From NCBI GenBank assembly GCA_963575745.1, contig CAUYUJ010000081.1, forward strand, positions 496,001-560,000: a stretch of 64,000 nucleotides of DNA, in the 5' to 3' direction. The stretch comes from Prorocentrum cordatum. Its lineage: Eukaryota. The notes below the pieces were generated by a model. That model made no database searches. It was given only the letters and a program-made list of their open reading frames with translations, and was not told the origin of the DNA. Position numbers and translations under genes: made by a program. Positions within the stretch are counted from its first letter, which is position 1. Each line of letters opens with the position of its first letter. Shown here one piece after another: positions 38,035-64,000 of the stretch.

Positions 38035-38642
38035 ATCCGCCGACCCTGTCGGCGTGTGCGAGGGGCTTGGCTGTTCGAGTCGTCGTCTCCGTCGGTCGTC
38101 GCCTCCGTCGCCCCCTTTCCCTGCAGCTTCCTTCTCAAGCTCGTGAGCGAGAGAAAAATCGAGCAGTGTCGTAATCGAGTCGAAGGGAAGCCCCTTCCCT
38201 TTGATCCCTTCCCCAGGGGGGGGGGGGGTCCCGGGGGGGGTCCCGGGGGGGGTCCCGGGGGGGGGTCCCGGGGGGGTCCCGGGGGGGGTGGGGGGGCAGA
38301 TTCGTTTTTCCTCGGGCGGCCTAGAAACCTCGAAAACACTCCAAATGAGGTCCGAATGCCCAAGATGGCCCCCGAGACGGCCCAAGAGGGCCCCGAGTCG
38401 CCCAAAGATCGGCCGAAAACGCCCAAGATAGCCCCAAGACCGTCCAAGAAGCCTCCAAGACGTCCCAGGCCCCCTCCAAGAGACCCCCAGGAAGCCCCAA
38501 GAGGCCCCCACGAGGCTTCCAAGCGGCCCCTAAGAGCTTCCCAAGAGGCCCACAAACTACCCCCAAGAGGCCCCCAAGAGCGCTCGTCGTCGTCGTCGTC
38601 GCCATTCAGGGTCGGCGGCACCCGCCGTAAGGCCGTCGCAAT
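38035..38642 (+). mobile_element. Non-autonomous element family D (asymmetric IR + hairpin)
   Basis: AT-CCGCCGACCCTG (IR 38037-38048); exact reverse complement at 38607-38618; hairpin GCC-GTAA-GGC (38624-38633); ends GCAAT. Confidence 0.7.
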
Positions 38643-49736: not shown

Positions 49737-51072
<1,336 letters not shown>

Positions 51073-53199: not shown

Positions 53200-55029
53200 A
53201 GATGTCCTACACTCATACATACATTATGTATACATATACGTGTGTGCAGAGCATGTGTAGAAATGTATACACGTGCATATACAAGCATACATACATACAT
53301 ACATACATACATACATACATACATACATACATACATACATACATGCATGCATGCATACATACATATATACTTACTTACATACATACGTACATACATACAC
53401 AAACACATGCATGCATGCATGCATGCATGCATGCATGCATATACATACATATACATACATACATGCATGCATATCCGCCGGCCCCCTTGTGGGGCCACCA
53501 GGCTGTAGGCGCGGGTTCGCAGTTTCCAGTATCAATTGTAGTTTGTAGTTTCCAGTGTTACAGTTCTGCTTCTTGCTGGTTACTGTAACTAATTGACTGA
53601 CCGCGCGAGGGGGGGGAGGCCAAAACGGGACTTTTAGCACCCCCTGGGCGCGTTGTCTGAATTGCTGGGGGGGCTCGAAATCCACACCCCTCACGCAGAT
53701 CCGCGGGGTCAGGGTCCAAAAACACAAGTGATGTGCCACATTTCTGAAATTCGGTGCCACCCCTCACGCAGATCCGCGGGGTCAGGGTCCAAAAACACAG
53801 GGATTTGCCACATTTCTGAAATTCGGTGCCACCCCTCACGCAGATCCGCGGGGTCAGGGTCCAAAAACAAAAGGGATTTGCCACATTTCTGAAATTCGGT
53901 GCCACCCCTCACGCAGATCCGCGGGGTCAGGGTCCAAAAACACATGGGATTTGCCACATTTCTGAAATTCGGTGCCACCCCTCACGCAGATCCGCGGGGT
54001 CAGGGTCCAAAAACACATGGGATTTGCCACATTTCTGAAATTCGGTGCCACCCCTCACGCAGATCCGCGGGGTCAGGGTCCAAAAACACATGGGATTTGC
54101 CACATTTCTGAAATTCGGTGCCACCCCTCACGCAGATCCGCGGGGTCAGGGTCCAAAAACACATGGGATTTGCCACATTTCTGAAATTCGGTGCCACCCC
54201 TCACGCAGATCCGCGGGGTCAGGGTCCAAAAACACATGGGATTTGCCACATTTCTGAAATTCGGTGCCACCCCTCACGCAGATCCGCGGGGTCAGGGTCC
54301 AAAAACACATGGGATTTGCCACATTTCTGAAATTCGGTGCCACCCCTCACGCAGATCCGCGGGGTCAGGGTCCAAAAACACATGGGATTTGCCACATTTC
54401 TGAAATTCGGTGCCACCCCTCACGCACATCCATCGCAAGGCGTGGTAACCCAAACTGCGAGTACTCCCTCGGCCCTTGAATCCCAAGGTGTGGTAACCAA
54501 GCTCGTAAACCATACACGTCTTACCAATCGCCCTGTGTGGTAACCCCTCTTGTGATCAGTTGGTTTTGCCGATTGCGAATCGGCCTCGCATGAAGTTCCG
54601 ATACTGCTGCACGACAGCGCCAAAGCCTCATGACTTAGCTCTTCCATGGCCCATTATCCGAGAGAGGGGGCCGGCGGCAGGGGGCGAAGCCCTTACGAAT
54701 ATACATACATACATACATACATACATGCATACATACATACATACATACATACATACATACATACTTACATACGTACATACATACATACATACATACATAC
54801 ATGCATACATACATACATACATACATACATGCATGCATGCATGCCTACATACATACATACATACATACATACATACATACCTACCTACCTACCTACATAC
54901 ATACATACATACATACATACATACATACGTACATCCATCCATCCATGCATGCATGCATGCATGCATGCATGCATGCATACATGCATGCATACATGCATAC
55001 ATACATACATACATACATACATACATACA

Positions 55030-55060
<31 letters not shown>

Positions 55061-55092
55061 GTACATACATACACACATACATATGTATATAC

Positions 55093-55123
<31 letters not shown>

Positions 55124-55146
55124 CATACATACATACATACATACAT
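53200..55146. repeat. (ACAT)n/(GCAT)n microsatellite split by family A copy 2
   Basis: Tracts at 53200-53472 and 54701-55146. Confidence 0.95.
53473..54700 (+). mobile_element. Family A element, copy 2 (10 x 73-bp array)
   Basis: Same ends and interior as 2985-4198. Confidence 0.85.
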
Positions 55147-56789
55147 AGTGGCTTCGTTTCTCGTTGTGAGAAAGCTGGGAACACCCCGAACTCGCGCTCC
55201 CTGGCCCTCCGCAAGTTCTATGATCTCCCCCCCCCAGAGCCCGTCCGCATCGATTCTCTCGAGCAGCCGTGCGGCTCCCTCGAAATTTCCCTGGACGCCT
55301 CCTTTCGTGCCTCTGAACGCCTCCTTTCGTGCCCCAGGGCCTCCGTCGAGACTTGCGCGAGGAAAACGCCACCACATGACACTTACACAGCACACCAAAG
55401 TGCCAAGCCACATGCAAACCGCCTGATCCCCTGAACCCAAAACAACTGCTCAAAGTAGACCGTGATGAAGCGAGCAAGGCGCCGGTAAGTCGAGAATTCG
55501 GTTGAGCGAAGGTGTCCAGAATCCCAGGCGTCGCGCTTTTGTTTGCGAAAGAAACACTACGGCTCTCGACCCCGCCCCTGGGACCGGATGTTCGTCGCGG
55601 GCCGCACTTTGCTGGCCCCTGGGCCCGAAACTATCCCCGAGCACCAAAAACGCGGAAAAACGCCAGCCGCCCCATTCTTATTTGCGAAGCCTTGAGGCCT
55701 GGCGAAATTGGGCCGTCGGAAGATGGAGTGCGCCGAAGAGGGAGGACGGGAAGAGGGAGGGGGGTGCGCATCAGGGCCCGGCCAGAGAGCGTGCTGAACA
55801 AGGAGACCACAACATCTGGGAAATCTCGTGGCCCCCGCCACGATTTCCCTCCCAGTCCTCACCCCACCCCCCTTTGTGGACGCCCCCAAGGCAGTTTTTG
55901 GTGTGTGGCGACTCGGGTCCAGCAAGCGGACAAGCAAACGGCGGGACGCATCCGTTGCGAATTGAGGCACAATGGCAAAGGCGGGGCGATGGGCGAGGAG
56001 AAAGGCCGCGGGACGGCCGGAGAACCCTCAGATCGTGCAGACCTTCAGGAATTTGCCTGGGAGCAGACTCAGTCACGACACAGCCAGTGCTAACGAACAG
56101 ACCAGGGACATAGACGACGCAATCGAGTGGCCCATGGTAAAGCCAGGAAGTACCGATACCGCTATTCCCTGGACTTCTCCAGGGGTGCGTTCTGAGCAGA
56201 ACTTCGAAGCGAACCCAGCGGTGGCGACGAGGGCCTCCCAGGAGGGCCAAGCAGGCGAAAACGAGGCAATGGCAGCGGTATCGGTACCTTATCCTCATCT
56301 GATGGGGGCGCCCAAAATTGGCACGGACAAAATGGGCACGATGCTCAACAACAGACGCTGTCCAACACCGACGGCGGACGCTGGTGGGCAGACGGCCTTC
56401 TGTCTCAAATGGACGTCCCCGGCGACACCGACAGCGGGTCCTCTTCCAAATGAACGCGACATGCGGTCGGCCTCTGCACACATGATTTGTCAATATAGCG
56501 CCCGATATACCGAGTTATGTGTACGCTGTCTCGTGTATTAGCACAGCTCAGCAGCTTCAGCACAGCATGATGTGTTGCAAGCAGTTGTTTCACATGTCTG
56601 TCACATTGCCATGTGATGTTCAGGGGCCCCCGAGTCAAGTCCGCCGATCCGGCGTGTGCGTTTCTGAGAGCGTGGACTTGAGTTCGCTCAAGCTTCGCTC
56701 TGCAGGGGGGGGGGGGCACGTTATTTCCGACGTCATTTCTCCACGGGGACAGGGGGGTATAGAAAACTCCAATTCCGGAGCCCCGACAG

Positions 56790-57157
56790 CTCGCCTGGGA
56801 GCGCCTGGGAGCATGCCGGGAACGCCTGGGAGCGCCTGGGATCGCCTGCGAGCGCCTGGGAACGCCTGGGAACGCCTGGGAGCGTGCCAGGAGCGTGCCG
56901 GGAGCGCCTGGGAACGTGCCGGGAGCGCCTGGGAGCGTGCCGGGAGCGCTTGGGAGCGTGCCGGGAGCGCTTGGGAGCGTGCCGGGAGCGCCTGGGAGCG
57001 CCTGGGAGCGCTTGGGAGCGCCTGGGAGCGCCTGGGAGCGCCTGAGAGCGCCTGGGAGCGCCTGGGAGCGCCTGGTAGCGTGCCGGAAGCGCCTGGGAGC
57101 GTGCCGGGAGCGTGCCGGGAGCGCCTGGGAGCGCCTGGAAGCGCCTGGGAGCGCCTG
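56790..57157. repeat. 10-bp minisatellite (GGGAGCGCCT/GGGAGCGTGCC)
   Basis: Read directly from the sequence. Confidence 0.95.
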
Positions 57158-57519
57158 ACGGCCCAGGAGCGCCACAAAACGACCCAAGTCCAGAGCCCAG
57201 TTCGCTCTGCAGGGGGGGCCCACATTATTTCCGATGTCATTTCCGACTTTTTTCGGTGCACGGGGACGGGGGTATAGAAAACTCCAATTCCGGAGCCCCG
57301 ACAGCCCAAGACAGCCCAAGAGGAAGCCAAGAGAGGCCCAAGAGGCCCCCTAGACAATGCGAGAGGGCCCCGAATCGCCGAAACATCGCTCGAACCGCCC
57401 ACGATGCCCCGAAGACAATTCCAGAAACCTCCACGACGACCCCAGGATCCCTCCCGACACTCCCCCAGAATGCCCAAAGACTGACAAATAGACCCATCCC
57501 CTGGGGAAAACGAAAGTGA

Positions 57520-60500
57520 AGAAAGCTGTGCTCGACACGTACGGAGCCGAAGCTATGCCCGACAAGCGTGACGTGAAATGAGTGGAGAAGATGCTGGTCG
57601 GTCAGAGCTTGAAGGACGACGTGAACTACACGAACGATTACGAGTGGGAGCGACGCCTGGGCTACTAAGACTCGTACCTGGAGGAGGAAGAGTATGAGGA
57701 CGACGAAGAGTACGACTACGAGGAGCACGAGGAGGCCGACGTTGCGGACGAGCTGTCGCAGGAGGTCGATGAGGCCCAAGTGGCGTGCTACGAGGCCTAC
57801 CTCAGCTTCGTGGATGCGAAGAAGCGTGTGGCGGAGATCGCCAAACCCAGAGGTTTCTACCCGATCGTCGCCCTCGCACCCGAGAACAACTACCAGCGCG
57901 ACGGCCGCGCAGGACCCACGAGAGCGACGAGATCAGGCACTGGCAAAGGCAAAGGACGTGGCAAAGGTAAAGGACGCGGCAAAAGGTTTGGCCCACCACG
58001 TCGAGAAGCTTTCTGGCCCCAGAAGGGAGCGTTTGGAAAGGGTGCGCCATCATCATCAGCGGGGTCGACTGCATCGGGTGCGACCCAGCAGCACGGCTCG
58101 TCATGCACGGGGGCTTCACCAAGCCCGACGACGAGGCACGCGTGGTGGAGGATGTTGAGACGCTGGAGCATACCAACTCAACCGAGAAAATCTTCCTGCT
58201 GACCATAGGCAACGATATCAGCGATGGAGGCGCCACGCGGCCCGCCATGGGCGACAAGGCGTGGGCGCAGTGGGAGGAGCTCCTTCGTTTCAGGCAATTG
58301 CTACACGAGGTCGAGTACAGCAAGAGTGATACACGCTTCCGATTCGGAGACGGTAAGAGTCTGGAGGCTAAGCAAGCGGTGACTCTGACTGCGTGGCCGT
58401 TCGGCGTCAAGTAGCAGATCACGATCCATATCGTCGAAGGTTGGAAGCCGCTGCTGATCGCGCGGCCCTGCATGGAAGAGTGAGCCTTGATCCAGGACTA
58501 CCGAGCTGGAACGTTCACGATGAAGGATCTCCCCGACAAGAGCTGGATGAAGTCCGAGCGCGACGAGCAGGGCCATTTCATGATCGACCTGTTGGGTGGA
58601 ACTGGTCGCGACGCCGACGATGTCATGAACGACGGAGCCCCCATCGATGGCGACGACCGCAGCAGCGACTCGACGGACAAAAACATTAAAGGAGATTCGG
58701 TCAAGGGCGACGACGGCGACGACGGGGACTCGTCGGCGCCTGACCCCGACGCCTTTTACCTTCAGACGCGGACGGAGTTCTACGAGATCGGCAGCGACGA
58801 CGAGACCCTGACCACGGAAGAGGTCATGGGCCCGGAGCGCCACCTGATGGACGCGGACACCCACTCGGACCTGGTCCTGGCGCTGGAGCAGCCGGCGTCC
58901 GACATGAAGGACACGCTGCGCGGGCCGCGCAAGCGGCTGGTCTGAGAGGTCTTCGTGGAGCAGGGGGCTTTGTCGCAGGAACTGCTCGTTTCCGCAGATC
59001 GAGGTGATCCAATTCAAGATCGAGGACGGTTGGGACTTCTCCAAGCGCGCCGTGATCCGCGACTTCCTGAACAAGATCGACAACGACAAGCCCGACGATA
59101 TCTTCTTCGCTCCCCCGTGCAAGCACTGGTGCTCCTGGCAACACGTGAACGAGAAGATCTCTGAGGAGCGCGCCAAGGACATCAATGTTGCCAGAGAGCA
59201 AGAACAGCGGACGCTTCTCAACATGATTATGACGGCGTGTGTGAAGCAGCAGAACGGAAACCGACACGCGCACGTAGAAGGCCCGTGGCAGGGGCTACAC
59301 TGGCGGACGAAGACATGGAAGAAGTTGCCAGGATATCACTGCAGGCTCGATCAGTGCAGGTTCGCAGCAACGTACACGATCCATGGCAAAGACATGCCAT
59401 ACCAGAAACCCACGAGACTGCAGCATCGACCAACAAGGAGTTCATTCAGCACATGACCCTGGCACGCGCGTGCGCGGACGACCAAGTGATCCTGCGGGGC
59501 AAGCTCGCCCAGCAAGCTCGGAACTACCCGAGACCGATGGCGAGGGGGATGGCCTACCTGATCGCCGACCAGGGCATGGCCGACGACATCAGCGACATCA
59601 ACACGGCCGAGGAGGTCTAAAAGGACATCGACGCCATCGAGTACACCGACATGAAGCAGGAGTTGATGAGGCAGTTCAACGCGTCGACGATCCGAGCAGT
59701 CAAGCGTGCACATGTCAGCCTGGGCCACCCTTCGAACGCAGCGCGGGCGGTCGCCATGCAGCATGCGGGTGCTCCAGCAGAGTGGATCCAGTGCGCCAGG
59801 CTCTTCCAGTGCGAGATCTGCCTAGGCAGGCAGAGGCCCCGAGCGGTTCGCGTCGCAGTCCTGCCGAGGGCCAAGAGGTTCAACGAGGTGGTCTGCACCG
59901 ACGTGCACTGCATCACCTGGAAGAAGAAGGCGAGGAAGATCCTGGCCAGTATAGACGAGTTTACACGCTACGAGGTCGACTACCAGATCTCGAAAGAGAC
60001 GTTCCTGAATGAGACGAAACTATGGGAGAAGCTCTGGATCAGCCGGGCCGGCAAGCCTGAGCCGATGCGCATGGACATGGGCGGCTCTCACACGGCCAAG
60101 CGCACGCGCGACTGGATGAGCAAGCACGGCATCAAGCTCGATCTGACCCCGAAAGGTGCGCACCACAGGTTAGGCCCGATGGAGCGGAGCCACGCGGTCA
60201 GCTCAGCAAGTACCATCTGCAGTTACCCGACGACTCGCTCAAGACCGCCCTCAGGATGACCGCCAGCCAGCGGAACACCCTGAGGAACGCGCACGGGTTC
60301 TCGCCCGCGGCGGTGGCGTTGGGGACGCAGCCCAAGATCCCAGGCGCCCTCTGCGACCGCGCTGGTCGACCCCAAGAGCGAGGTGCCCGAGATGATGATC
60401 TGGAGAACGACCGCCGCGACGGCCCTCATCGAGGCCAAGTGCTCGCGCGCCGCGCGATCGGCGCTGCTGGCGCACAGCAGGCCAGCGAGGAGGAACTACG

Positions 60501-63410
60501 AGGTCGGCGAGTGGGTCTACTTCTGGCTATCCGAGCATACGCAGGGGATGGAGAAGTGCCATTGGTACGGCCCAGCTCTGGCGGTAGCAGTGGAGGCGAA
60601 AATCAACGAGGACAACGCGATGCACACCTCGGCGACGCACGGACGCGCGATCTACCCTTGCAGCTTGGAGCAGCTTCGCCCCGAGCTGCCAGGCGAGGCC
60701 CGCGAACGAGAAGGACGCAGCGAGGACCCCGACAGCCCGCTCAGCACGATCGAGAAGTTCAGGCGCGTGCTCAGGCGGACGAAGGGAACCTGCAACTACC
60801 GAGACCTCGCCGAGGAGGGGCGCTTGCCACAGTACGACGACAACATGGACGACATGGGCGAGCAGCAGCAGCCAAGCGCCCAGGCACCCATGGAGGTGGA
60901 CGAGACCGACGGCCCGACAGGTGCAGCTGCCGCGGCGGCCCCTGGAGATCCTCACCCGACGACGGCCCTGCAGCGGCCAGCGCCGGCGCGTCTGGCAGCG
61001 CTGCGCGGGGGCCTAGCAGGTTCCACATCGAGGCGATGGCATGTCGAGGAGGCTGAGAAGCTGGACGGCATCCCGCTGGCCAAAGCCCTCGCCTGTCACG
61101 GGCGAAGCTCGCCCCGCAGAGCGAGGAGGCTGCGCTCGCCGACGAGGTGAACGACGAGATGCTGCTGTTGGAGGAGTCCACAGAGACGGTCTACATGCTG
61201 GCCTTAAGAGGAAAGCCCCCACCATCGTGGAGGGCAGGTTGACGCCCGAGGAGAAGGACCAGTTCTACGCGGCGAAGCTGGAGGCCCTCGAGGCTTTCAA
61301 TCGCAATGACGGCTGGGAGCCCATCAACGAGGCGGATGGGAATCCCTGAGACTGCTCCCCCTACGCTTCCTACTCAAATGGAAAATGAAGGATGGGCAGA
61401 AGGTGGCCAACGCGCGCGTACTCTACCAAGGGTTCAAGCACCGCGACGTCGCCGAGGGCCAGCTCGACAGGTAGGCGTCGACCCTCAGACGGTCATGCTG
61501 TGGGCGTCTCTAAGGAAGTGGAGGCTGTTCAGCGCGGATGTGAAGTCCGCATTCCTGCAGGCTGAGGACGCGGGCGCACGCGGCCTCAAGCTGCGCGCGA
61601 GCCCGACGAAGAAGATTAGAGAGATGCTCTCTCACCAAATCGGCCTACAACCTGGACAACTGCTCAAGATGATCAAGCCGTGTTTTGGTGACCCGCGGTC
61701 GCCCAGGCTTTGGCGCTACCGCTCCGACGAAGTCGCAGAGGTGATCGGGCTCAGGAACCACAAGCTCGAGGATTACCTGATGCTGTCCCTGCGCCCGGCG
61801 AGGGTGGTCGACGACGACCCGCTCGACGCGCGCAGCTTCGAGGGCCAAACCTACGCGGTGGATGGCCTGATCGGCAGGCACGTGGACGACTTCATCGGGC
61901 GCGGCAAGGGCGCGACGAACGAACAGGACCTCTACGCGAAGCTTGAGGGGCCCTCAAAGAGAAGTTCAACTTCGGCAAGTGGGAGCTCGGACCGAGTCTG
62001 ATCTTCACTGGAGGCGACGTGGAGCAGTCCCTGAGCACCTAAAGCGCGACCCTCAAGTTCGAGAAGTACCTGCACGCGGTGAAACCCAACATCGTCGAGA
62101 AGCATCGGAGAGCTGACCCCTTGAGTGTGCTGTCGCCGAAGGAGCCGACGAACTTCAGGACCCTGACTGGACAGCTGCAGTGGCGGGCAGCCCAAGGATT
62201 GATCATAGCAGCGGCTACCGTGTCCTTCTGAGCTTCGGCGACAGGTCGAACACCGTGCAAGGACCTCTTGGATGCGAACAATGCCAACGCGGACGTAGGG
62301 CTGTACTTCGGGTTCGACAAGGCCTGGAGCAACCTGCGAGTTGGCAACTACACCGACGCTAGCTGGGCGAGCCGACATGACTGCAATTTGCAAGGAAGCT
62401 ACGCGATCTCCATCGGACCCGCGGACGAGCTCAACGCCGGCACCCCCGCACCTGTTGTGGCCATGGAACGGGGCTCGCTGTCGGCGGAGGCCCAGGCAGC
62501 AGCCTTGGGCGCAGAGTCGCTGATGTTGGTGAAGGTCTATCTGGCGTGGAGCTTACGACCCGACCTGGAGCTCGAAGAAGTGATGACGTACCTGGGAGAG
62601 TCGCCGTTCATCACGGACGCGAAGTGTCTCTACGACGCGTCGCGCTCAGCGACGGCAGGCCTGGGCATCACGGAGAAGAGGACGGCAATCGAGGTGAAGA
62701 TCGTGAACTAGCAAATGGCGGAGACAGGCGCCACCTAGAAGTGGGTGAACACGCACCAGCAGATGGCGGACGGACTTACCAAGCTCTCGTCCCGCCAGAT
62801 GATGGCAGACGTGCTACGCCGTAGAGTGCATGCGTTGCGCTACGACCCCGACTTCGTAGCCGGCAAGAAGCTCTCCAAGAGGGCCATGGAGCAACGCGAG
62901 AAGGGGCTGGATGAGGCTGGTGAGGCGCTGCACGACACCCTCGAGACACCGCCTGTGACGAAGGCGAAGGAGAAAACGAAGGTCAAGGGCAAGCGCCATT
63001 TTGGCGCGACTGGAGCGAAGCTCGCTGCGGCATTGGCAGCTAGCGCTGGCAGCAGTGCGGCAGGTCAGGTGGTACAGTACACGCCCAGCGGCGTCGAGCT
63101 GTTCAGCCCACCGACGCTGGCCGACTTGTGGTGCCATTATACTGCGGGTTCCGTGTTGGAATATGGTGGACACACTTGACCAAGTAGCTCGAGCACGACA
63201 TGAAGATCGAGAAGACGCGCGAGCCCGAGACAGAGCCGGTGCCCATCAGAGTCACGACGACTGCGACCGGGACCGACCCGAAGCCGACGAAGCAGAAGAA
63301 GATGCGCAGCGTGCTCGTCCAGTCGCAGTGTCGCTACAACCTGGATCTCAGCACGCCGAGGTTCCAGCCGTTGCCCGAGTACGTTCATGGAGCTTTCGTA
63401 ACAGGATGAA
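57520..63410 (+). mobile_element. Degenerate Ty1/copia retrotransposon internal region (gag tail-PR-[MTase]-IN-RT-RNaseH), 5' truncated
   Basis: GKGKGRGKGKG gag tail (~57941). Protease DGGAT...FRFGDG...PLLI (from 58223). Integrase HVSLGH...CEIC, TDV, DEFT, RMDMG, ERSH (59710-60195). RT SADVKSAFLQ, HVDDF (61530-61895). RNase H YTDASWA, SAEAQA, TDAKCLYD, ADGLTK (62349-62785). Integrase before RT is the copia order. Many stops and frameshifts. Confidence 0.92.
58937..59570 (+). pseudogene. C5-cytosine DNA methyltransferase-like domain within the copia polyprotein
   Basis: Ordered motifs: LV*EVFVEQGALS (motif I-like), GWDF, DIFFAPPC (catalytic PC, 59112-59120), HVEGP (motif VI-like, 59271-59285), LDQCRF...QKPTR (motif VIII-like), ARNYPRPMARGMA (motif X-like). 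Confidence 0.7.
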
Positions 63411-64000
63411 GGGGTACCCAGAGGCCGTTTTAGCATGAGGCCAGTTTAGCATGATGGTCGGCAAAGCCGACGTGAGAGACTCCGTCGGCGGAAGCCGACT
63501 CGTACGTGAGTGCTCCGAGGAACACACCTTGTGCGTGTATCTGCACGGCGAAATAGACCGATCGCTGGGCGTGCTGACAAATTAACGTCGCTGTCGCGAC
63601 CGCCGGTGAGTTTCACATTCGAATCAGACTGCCTTGTGCCGGGAACCCGCGGTGTTGGCATAATTGTATCTGTTTTAGTTTCGGTCCTGTTCCCGTTTCG
63701 AGTTTCCTGGTAAAATTCTGGGGGGCCCTGATCTTGGCAATGTGCGTTGTTGAGCGAATATGTGAAAAACAACTATTTGTTCCGCCCGTGTCAATATAAC
63801 CCCCGTTATACCGAGTTATGTGTACGTAGTCTTGTGTATTATCACAGCTCAGCAGGTTCAGCATAGCATGATGTGTTATAAGCAGTTGTTTCACATATGT
63901 CTGTACCATTACCATTTGATGTTCAGGGGCCCCTGAGTCAGGTAAAGGTTGCGTATCTCACGAGCTGATACGATGATCAAGATCATCTGTGATATCGAAC

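Follow-up and report, generated by a model that had tools for sequence, protein, structure and literature searches.

A divergent domain with a predicted C5-methyltransferase-like fold between protease and integrase in a decayed Ty1/copia retrotransposon of the dinoflagellate Prorocentrum cordatum

The window analysed here is a stretch of 64,000 nucleotides from Prorocentrum cordatum (contig CAUYUJ010000081.1), and the element of interest within it is a decayed long terminal repeat (LTR) retrotransposon of the Ty1/copia type, which is present once. The polyprotein of the element has the order protease, domain X, integrase, reverse transcriptase and RNase H (PR-X-IN-RT-RH), with the integrase upstream of the reverse transcriptase, as indicated by Pfam, tblastn and motif positions. 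Domain X, an additional domain that resembles the C5-cytosine methyltransferases (C5-MTases) in its motifs and predicted fold, is the subject of this report. The features of the element are as follows, with positions counted from the first nucleotide of the window.

56488..56640, plus strand: start of the 5′ LTR, beginning TGTCAATATA; matches 63789-63943 at 87.7% over 155 bp.
56792..57157, plus strand: tandem repeat with a 10/21-bp unit, CGCCTGGGAG, in the 5′ LTR or leader (Tandem Repeats Finder, 35.6 copies, 80% matches).
57501..57941, plus strand: gag-like remnant (tblastn of P0002 residues 133-277 and P0003 residues 162-267; in-frame stop at 57666).
58106..58480, plus strand: aspartic-protease region (tblastn; motifs DGGAT at 58223-58237 and LLIARP at 58451-58468; in-frame stops at 58412 and 58481).
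58560..58936, plus strand: linker rich in Asp, Glu and Ser, from the protease to domain X (translation of the open reading frame 58484-58945).
58937..59587, plus strand: domain X, C5-methyltransferase-like, dead copy (motifs, tblastn, homologues and the predicted fold of intact relatives).
59621..60259, plus strand: integrase, finger and catalytic core (Pfam rve, E 3.4e-10; stops at 59618, 60257 and 60281).
61243..62001, plus strand: reverse-transcriptase remnant (tblastn; DVKSAFLQ at 61537-61560 and HVDDF at 61879-61893; several frame changes).
62232..62783, plus strand: RNase H-like remnant (tblastn; YTDASWAS at 62349-62372 and TDAKCLYD at 62613-62636; stops at 62229, 62709 and 62736).
63789..64000, plus strand: start of the 3′ LTR, truncated at the window edge (blastn, MAFFT).

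Domain X covers around 215 codons, and its end lies ~40 codons ahead of the integrase zinc finger. A sequence-only reading of the window had described ~210 codons of C5-MTase-like motifs in this region, broken by one stop and two frameshifts, and all of these motifs were located within 58937-59587 in the order given. The domain opens in frame 2 with LV*EVFVEQGALS (58937-58975), in which the motif I-like VFVEQGALS lies inside 58946-58975. It continues in frame 3 with GWDF (59028-59039), FFAPPC (59103-59120, with the Cys codon at 59118-59120), VEGP (59274-59285), DQC (59349-59357) and KPTR (59406-59417), and is again in frame 2 for NYPRPMA (59522-59542). The stop is the in-frame TGA at 58943-58945, a position occupied by Trp in all relatives. 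Alignment by tblastn with the intact relatives P0003 and P0002 placed the domain in frame 2 to 58990, in frame 3 over 58968-59423 and in frame 2 from 59426, so that the two frameshifts fall at ~58985-58990 and at 59424-59425.

The same reading had set the domain after an acidic linker, between the protease and integrase of a Ty1/copia element. This is borne out by the linker at ~58560-58936, the rve match at 59621-60259, the order PR-X-IN-RT-RH and the presence of RVT_2 and rve in collinear relatives, whose domain order, from Pfam on the polyproteins, is zf-CCHC, X, rve and RVT_2. The RVT_2 matches of the collinear relatives P0026, P0037, P0061 and P0100 have E 1e-11 to 4e-21; that of P0005, at E 0.016, is short of the cut-off, and the reverse-transcriptase piece of the window has no Pfam match at E ≤ 1. 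The integrase has a finger of the HHCC type (H-x4-H, C-x2-C) at 59711-59821, comprising HVSLGHPS (59711-59734) and CEIC (59810-59821). The protease region of the window has no Pfam protease match, and DGGAT is interpretable, on the authors' own reading, as the D-S/T-G-A active site. The RNase H-like region of the window also has no Pfam match and is named from its position and from a like reading of its motifs.

The copy in the window is old and dead, a pseudogene unable to make protein. Compared with P0003, it carries a minimum of 14 in-frame stops and no fewer than seven frame changes. The LTR pieces form a 155-bp direct repeat, 87.7% identical, at 56488 and 63789, each starting with TG (blastn, MAFFT); the repeat is confirmable for only the first ~155 bp of the 5′ LTR. 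The 3′ LTR continues past the window, so that neither complete LTRs nor a target-site duplication are visible in it. The similarity of the LTR starts stops ~150 bp ahead of the CGCCTGGGAG tandem repeat. A public gene model of the locus, P0008 ('unnamed protein product, partial', 1125 residues), is 100% identical to the query piece 58989-59456. The model covers 58484-62700 of the window, its predicted introns skip stops and frameshifts, and it translates part of domain X out of frame, which makes it an artefact of annotation.

The distribution of domain X was established with the piece 58989-59456, which gives 155 residues in a single frame. Compared with longer proteins, this piece matched nine polyproteins, all nine from P. 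cordatum, at E 5e-69 to 2.8e-24. It has no homologue among proteins of similar length because its relatives are long polyproteins. A HMMER search of 1.84 billion representatives with the same piece returned 275 proteins at E ≤ 1e-3, 66 at E ≤ 1e-10 and two at E ≤ 1e-30. Among 156 retrieved sequences, 34 include the complete domain and give a good alignment, and in all long polyproteins examined it stands between the protease region and the integrase. An organism name was attached to five of the 30 clusters looked up, and all were dinoflagellates: Breviolum minutum, Symbiodinium species (as 'Copia protein' or 'GIP'), Effrenium voratum and Durusdinium trenchii. Domain X is present in intact polyproteins of Prorocentrum and of four genera of Symbiodiniaceae. 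Open reading frames of 2557-2559 residues run unbroken on 7.9-kb contigs, and therefore intact copies exist. The metagenome contig L011 (2171 bp) has a match at 117-734 in which the domain is 98% identical to the family member P0076; members of the family therefore also occur in environmental assemblies.

A secondary insertion, which the sequence-only reading had considered as a way to be wrong, is not seen, at least not a recent one, as X is collinear in polyproteins that are only 25-30% identical. Between P0061 and P0005, identity is 29.8% in X, 28.6% in the integrase and 32.3% in the reverse transcriptase, and P0100 is collinear with P0005 over residues 182-1538 (X, integrase and reverse transcriptase) at 26% identity. 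As the divergence of X is close to that of the integrase and reverse transcriptase with which it is collinear, X is not a recent insertion. It is a real and ancient domain, vertically inherited within a copia lineage found widely among dinoflagellates.

Canonical C5-MTases contain a P-C nucleophile, an E-N-V motif and the R-x-R arginines. In their topology, motif I is the cofactor loop, motif IV holds the nucleophilic Cys, motif VI holds the Glu which protonates N3, and motif X is the last helix. The residues of domain X were counted over 162 domain rows from 156 proteins, and the strands and residue numbers below are those of model 1, a predicted structure described in the next paragraph. The family consensus WE-V-[FY]-x-G-x-G follows strand 1 (residues 2-5) as a Gly-rich loop of the motif I kind, with a Glu ahead of it in 98/102 rows and its glycines in 68/107 and 78/108. 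The window copy and its subfamily read V-E/D-Q-G-A here, off the consensus. A P-x-C loop follows the strand at 55-58, with Cys in 136/148 and Pro two residues earlier in 139/148; it reads PPC in the window copy. At the end of the strand at 111-117 is the Glu of an E-x-P motif (Glu 138/142, Pro 136/141), and the residue after the Glu is His in 66, Gln in 46, Asn in 12 and Gly in 11 of 142. The closing helix is at 199-210. By their order, the Gly-rich loop, the Cys of P-x-C, the Glu of E-x-P and this helix would correspond to motifs I, IV, VI and X. The Trp of GWDF and an Arg of the long helix (134/148) are near-invariant. After strand 6 the family has D-Q-C (103/129, 101/128 and 120/127 rows), and K-x-T is also conserved (107/113 and 104/109). 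The sequence-only reading had taken DQC.F...KPTR for a DNA methyltransferase (DNMT) motif, and this is not supported: none of the canonical DNMT motifs corresponds to the stretch. The ~50 residues standing where DNMTs hold their recognition domain contain Cys177 (99/100) and a His (90/100), which, together with the Cys of D-Q-C, could form a putative small metal site, judging by conservation in the alignment. The window counterpart of this Cys/His insert comprises DQC at 59349-59357 and the stretch 59426-59520.

Two structures of intact relatives were predicted. Model 1 was made with AlphaFold2 for the domain of P0004 from a 16-sequence alignment (mean predicted local distance difference test, pLDDT, 88.3; predicted template modelling score, pTM, 0.84). 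Model 2 was made for P0143, the most divergent full-length member, ~21% identical to the P0004 domain, from a 25-sequence alignment (pLDDT 81.7). In Foldseek searches of the PDB with model 1, C5-MTases made up 42 of the 46 matches listed; the best, and the single match at E ≤ 1e-3, was the DNMT2 homologue EhMeth (3qv2), at E 4.2e-4. Model 2 gave 54 matches at E ≤ 1e-3, of which all 41 listed were C5-MTases, again with 3qv2 as the best (E 1.6e-5). With two programs, three libraries and both models, the top ranks went to C5-MTases rather than to dehydrogenases or methyltransferases of other classes. The alignments to DNMTs extend over ~180 residues, starting in the first strand and reaching the final helix, compared with ~150 for dehydrogenases. 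In the viral library BFVD, 21 of 50 rows were named as cytosine or DNA methylases and four more as other methyltransferases; the best of these matches were to proteins of ~200-250 residues, with TMq up to 0.58. The nearest Pfam-named cluster of the ESM Atlas, at a score of 0.88, is a viral cluster of 222 residues in which 35% of members have PF00145, a lead only. These searches point to a class I methyltransferase fold for X which, as predicted, is most like that of the solved C5-MTases. At ~215-230 residues the domain is smaller than the solved enzymes it matches (~275-330), and in model 1 one core strand is apparently missing.

The reading preferred here, at a probability of around 0.6, is that X is a highly divergent, minimal domain of the C5-methyltransferase fold and a long-standing component of a copia lineage in dinoflagellates. 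Intact copies would probably be engaged in a putative Cys/Glu-dependent transfer of methyl groups to a nucleic acid handled by the element. The C5-MTase identity proposed from the sequence is in this way upheld at the level of the fold, as the suggested comparison of structures did find a C5-MTase fold match (two models, three libraries), and is not supported at the level of the DNA_methylase sequence family (Pfam, PDB profiles and hhalign).

A number of observations weigh against this reading, the first of them from sequence searches. PF00145 (DNA_methylase) did not match the pieces of the window at E ≤ 1 or four intact polyproteins at E ≤ 0.1, and it matched none of 16 aligned members at E ≤ 1 and, with the limit set to E ≤ 0.5, none of 100 short proteins from the family. 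By sequence, domain X falls outside PF00145, and it has therefore so far gone unnoticed. A match of a window piece to the TRM13 methyltransferase family in Pfam (E 0.05, 13.6 bits) is below any threshold. Sequence-profile searches of the PDB with two alignments found no methyltransferase at E ≤ 10; what they did return, capsid proteins and an RxLR effector among others, were chance matches at E ≥ 0.086. When 34 members of X were compared with nine C5-MTases by hhalign, motif I and strand 2 alone were aligned, over 19-27 columns (P 0.044, probability 1.2%), and the alternative alignment was out of register. The C5-MTase profile, made from E. coli Dcm (confirmed by PF00145), two Dcm homologues and six phage enzymes, was shallow, as the search for Dcm homologues gave close relatives only.

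The remaining points concern structure and residues. Both structures of X are predictions, their Foldseek template modelling scores against the PDB are only 0.3-0.45, and the lead of the C5-MTases over generic Rossmann folds is only ~2 Z. The motifs were mapped to sites by the order of secondary-structure elements and not by residue-level superposition. The first Gly of motif I is Asp in 26/107 rows, including the Prorocentrum subfamily, and Glu in the window copy. No acidic residue is conserved where strand 2 ends. In place of a normal-sized target-recognition domain, ~50 residues lead from the strand 6/7 region to the last helix. The family alignment has no conserved Arg pair for the motif VIII Arg-x-Arg after strand 6, where D-Q-C is found instead. 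Of the Pro-Cys, Glu and Arg that the sequence-only reading proposed to check, the Cys (136/148) and the Glu (138/142) are conserved and an Arg pair is not. The ratio of observed to expected CpG is 1.07 in the element (57500-63400) and 0.89 in the other 56 kb, so that no CpG depletion was seen as a footprint of methylation in the element, which is weak evidence either way.

These points bear on two alternatives. According to the first, which is unlikely while deserving serious consideration, X is a Rossmann-type domain with another function, be it an enzyme that binds nucleotides or NAD(P), a methyltransferase of another class or a thiol enzyme that works through the conserved Cys, and its likeness to C5-methyltransferases is that of the generic three-layer alpha/beta arrangement only. 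The lack of a sequence-level link to the DNMTs would be accounted for in this manner, as would the missing motif VIII arginines, motif II acid and target-recognition domain, and the conserved features that have no DNMT counterpart (GWDF, DQC, KKPT and Cys177 with its His). Against it, C5-MTases come first in every structure search, across both programs, all three libraries and both models, and the alignments with DNMTs extend over ~180 residues, compared with the ~150 found for dehydrogenases. The two best-conserved polar residues of X are a Cys and a Glu, in the places and order known from C5-MTase topology.

The second alternative, less probable again, is that X descends from a C5-methyltransferase and is now non-catalytic, like DNMT3L, and acts by scaffolding, by binding nucleic acid, or by recruiting or blocking host DNMTs. 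The loss of the recognition domain and motif VIII arginines is consistent with such a pseudo-enzyme, as is the change of the first motif I Gly to Asp in 26/107 rows, the window subfamily among them, and the lack of CpG depletion in the element. Retention of the Cys (136/148) and Glu (138/142) across members that are 20-30% identical is unexpected for a pseudo-enzyme, however, and most members retain G-x-G. That the motifs arose by chance, in part of a dead element that is non-coding or was read out of frame, as the stop and two frameshifts might suggest, is refuted by relatives that match at E 5e-69 with intact frames, by 275 library matches and 34 alignable full-length copies, and by the high-confidence models. 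A reading of X as a Cys-His protease was dropped, as the His of E-H-P occurs in only 66/142 rows and the structure searches found no protease fold.

If X is a divergent C5-methyltransferase-fold domain, as preferred here, its action in intact copies could be pictured as follows. The Rossmann-type core would bind S-adenosylmethionine, and the Cys would attack C6 of cytosine while the Glu protonates N3. The methyl group would then be moved to the C5 position, in a nucleic acid with which the element itself deals. A possible substrate is newly made cDNA, within the particle or the pre-integration complex, as X directly precedes the zinc finger of the integrase, and X may travel with the integrase. 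An RNA or tRNA substrate, as for DNMT2, is equally open. The full picture, of an active minimal C5-methyltransferase without a recognition domain, attached to or travelling with the integrase and methylating either the cDNA of the element or its genomic RNA or tRNA primer, is a tentative one, with the odds against it.

Should the preferred reading be correct, a large and old copia lineage in at least five dinoflagellate genera would carry a methyltransferase-like module, and the range of transposon-borne methyltransferases would extend to the copia group. X would then be a natural C5-methyltransferase core stripped of its recognition domain, with a bearing on how targets are chosen, and it would have a bearing on the origin of dinoflagellate methylation patterns. 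If X is active, the most abundant retrotransposons of dinoflagellates would bring a methylation enzyme of their own, which might contribute to the unusual methylation found across the genomes of these algae. It would also represent a new branch of the DNMT superfamily that is invisible to sequence searches, possibly related to viral proteins of ~210 residues.

Immediately upstream of the element are three tandem arrays, at 50000-50841 (90-bp unit, 9.3 copies, 94%), 53685-54431 (73-bp unit, 10.2 copies, 98%) and 54701-55147 ((ATAC)n, ~112 copies). The leader of the element at 57336-57480 recurs ~19 kb upstream, at 38358-38502 (147 bp, 75.5% identity), and the latter stretch may be a fragment of a related element.

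Retrotransposons with DNMTs are known among LINE, DIRS and Gypsy elements, namely SymbioLINE-DNMT, SymbioDIRS-Dnmt3 and KnitGypsy-Dnmt3, according to the available text of de Mendoza et al. 2018 (PMC5890265). The sequence-only reading had placed such DNMTs in DIRS, Gypsy and LINE elements, and this agrees with what is stated there (PMC5890265). As in these elements, of which two of the three cases have dinoflagellate hosts, the window element has a cytosine-methyltransferase-type domain in the coding region of a retrotransposon; the DNMTs of DIRS and Gypsy are also in pol, and those authors likewise proposed self-methylation of cDNA (PMC5890265, available text). Unlike X, the DNMTs described in that text are recognised by Pfam and fall within known DNMT clades (PMC5890265). 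X differs from them in having no sequence-model match and no target-recognition domain, in its Ty1/copia carrier and in its position between protease and integrase. The accessible part of the same paper states that the Copia superfamily of Symbiodinium 'lacks any DNMT domain' (PMC5890265). If X is an enzyme derived from a DNMT, that statement is true only as far as detection by Pfam goes.

Another known group is SmTCL, heat-activated Ty1-copia-like elements of Symbiodinium microadriaticum for which reverse transcriptase, integrase, RNase H and LTRs are described (Chen et al. 2017, PMC5776459, in the part available). SmTCL resembles the window element in being a dinoflagellate Ty1/copia and is set apart by its description, in which, as far as the accessible text extends, no extra domain is mentioned (PMC5776459). 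A 'Copia protein' of S. microadriaticum is in the same 90% cluster as P0117, a member of the X family. LTR retrotransposons with DNA methyltransferase domains, of the adenine type and of prokaryotic kind, have been named DAM-LTR and 'EpiLTR' in a preprint (bioRxiv 10.64898/2026.05.21.726589, partial text). In some of these elements the 3′ end of pol holds a canonical DNMT, as opposed to the position of X between protease and integrase, and the term 'copia' is absent from the main text as available (bioRxiv 10.64898/2026.05.21.726589). The accessible portion of a 2024 review added nothing on a copia-borne methyltransferase domain. No description of domain X was found in the literature covered, from which subscription journals and bioRxiv supplements fall outside. 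On this literature, X is an undescribed domain of dinoflagellate copia elements.

When compared with the catalytic domains of C5-MTases (DNMT3A/B/C, M.HhaI, DNMT1 and MET1; PF00145), X is 9-15% identical. It differs from the canonical enzymes in its P-x-C and E-[HQ]-P motifs, in having no R-x-R and in the ~50 residues which replace the target-recognition domain. DNMT2, through its homologue EhMeth (3qv2), is the top Foldseek match of both models and illustrates that the DNMT fold can act on RNA; DNMT2 itself keeps all ten motifs and the recognition domain. Similarly small are the short viral putative cytosine methyltransferases of ~200-250 residues, such as A0A0A0RJX0 (unnamed), A0A2P0VN45 of Tetraselmis virus 1 and C3U2K5 of Lactococcus phage P087; they are the best viral structural matches in BFVD, at E 6.4e-5 to 5.7e-4. 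The short viral proteins are 14-18% identical to X and are free-standing phage or giant-virus proteins of putative function, not domains of a polyprotein. These small proteins may represent a related branch of recognition-domain-less methyltransferases, or the source from which X was acquired.

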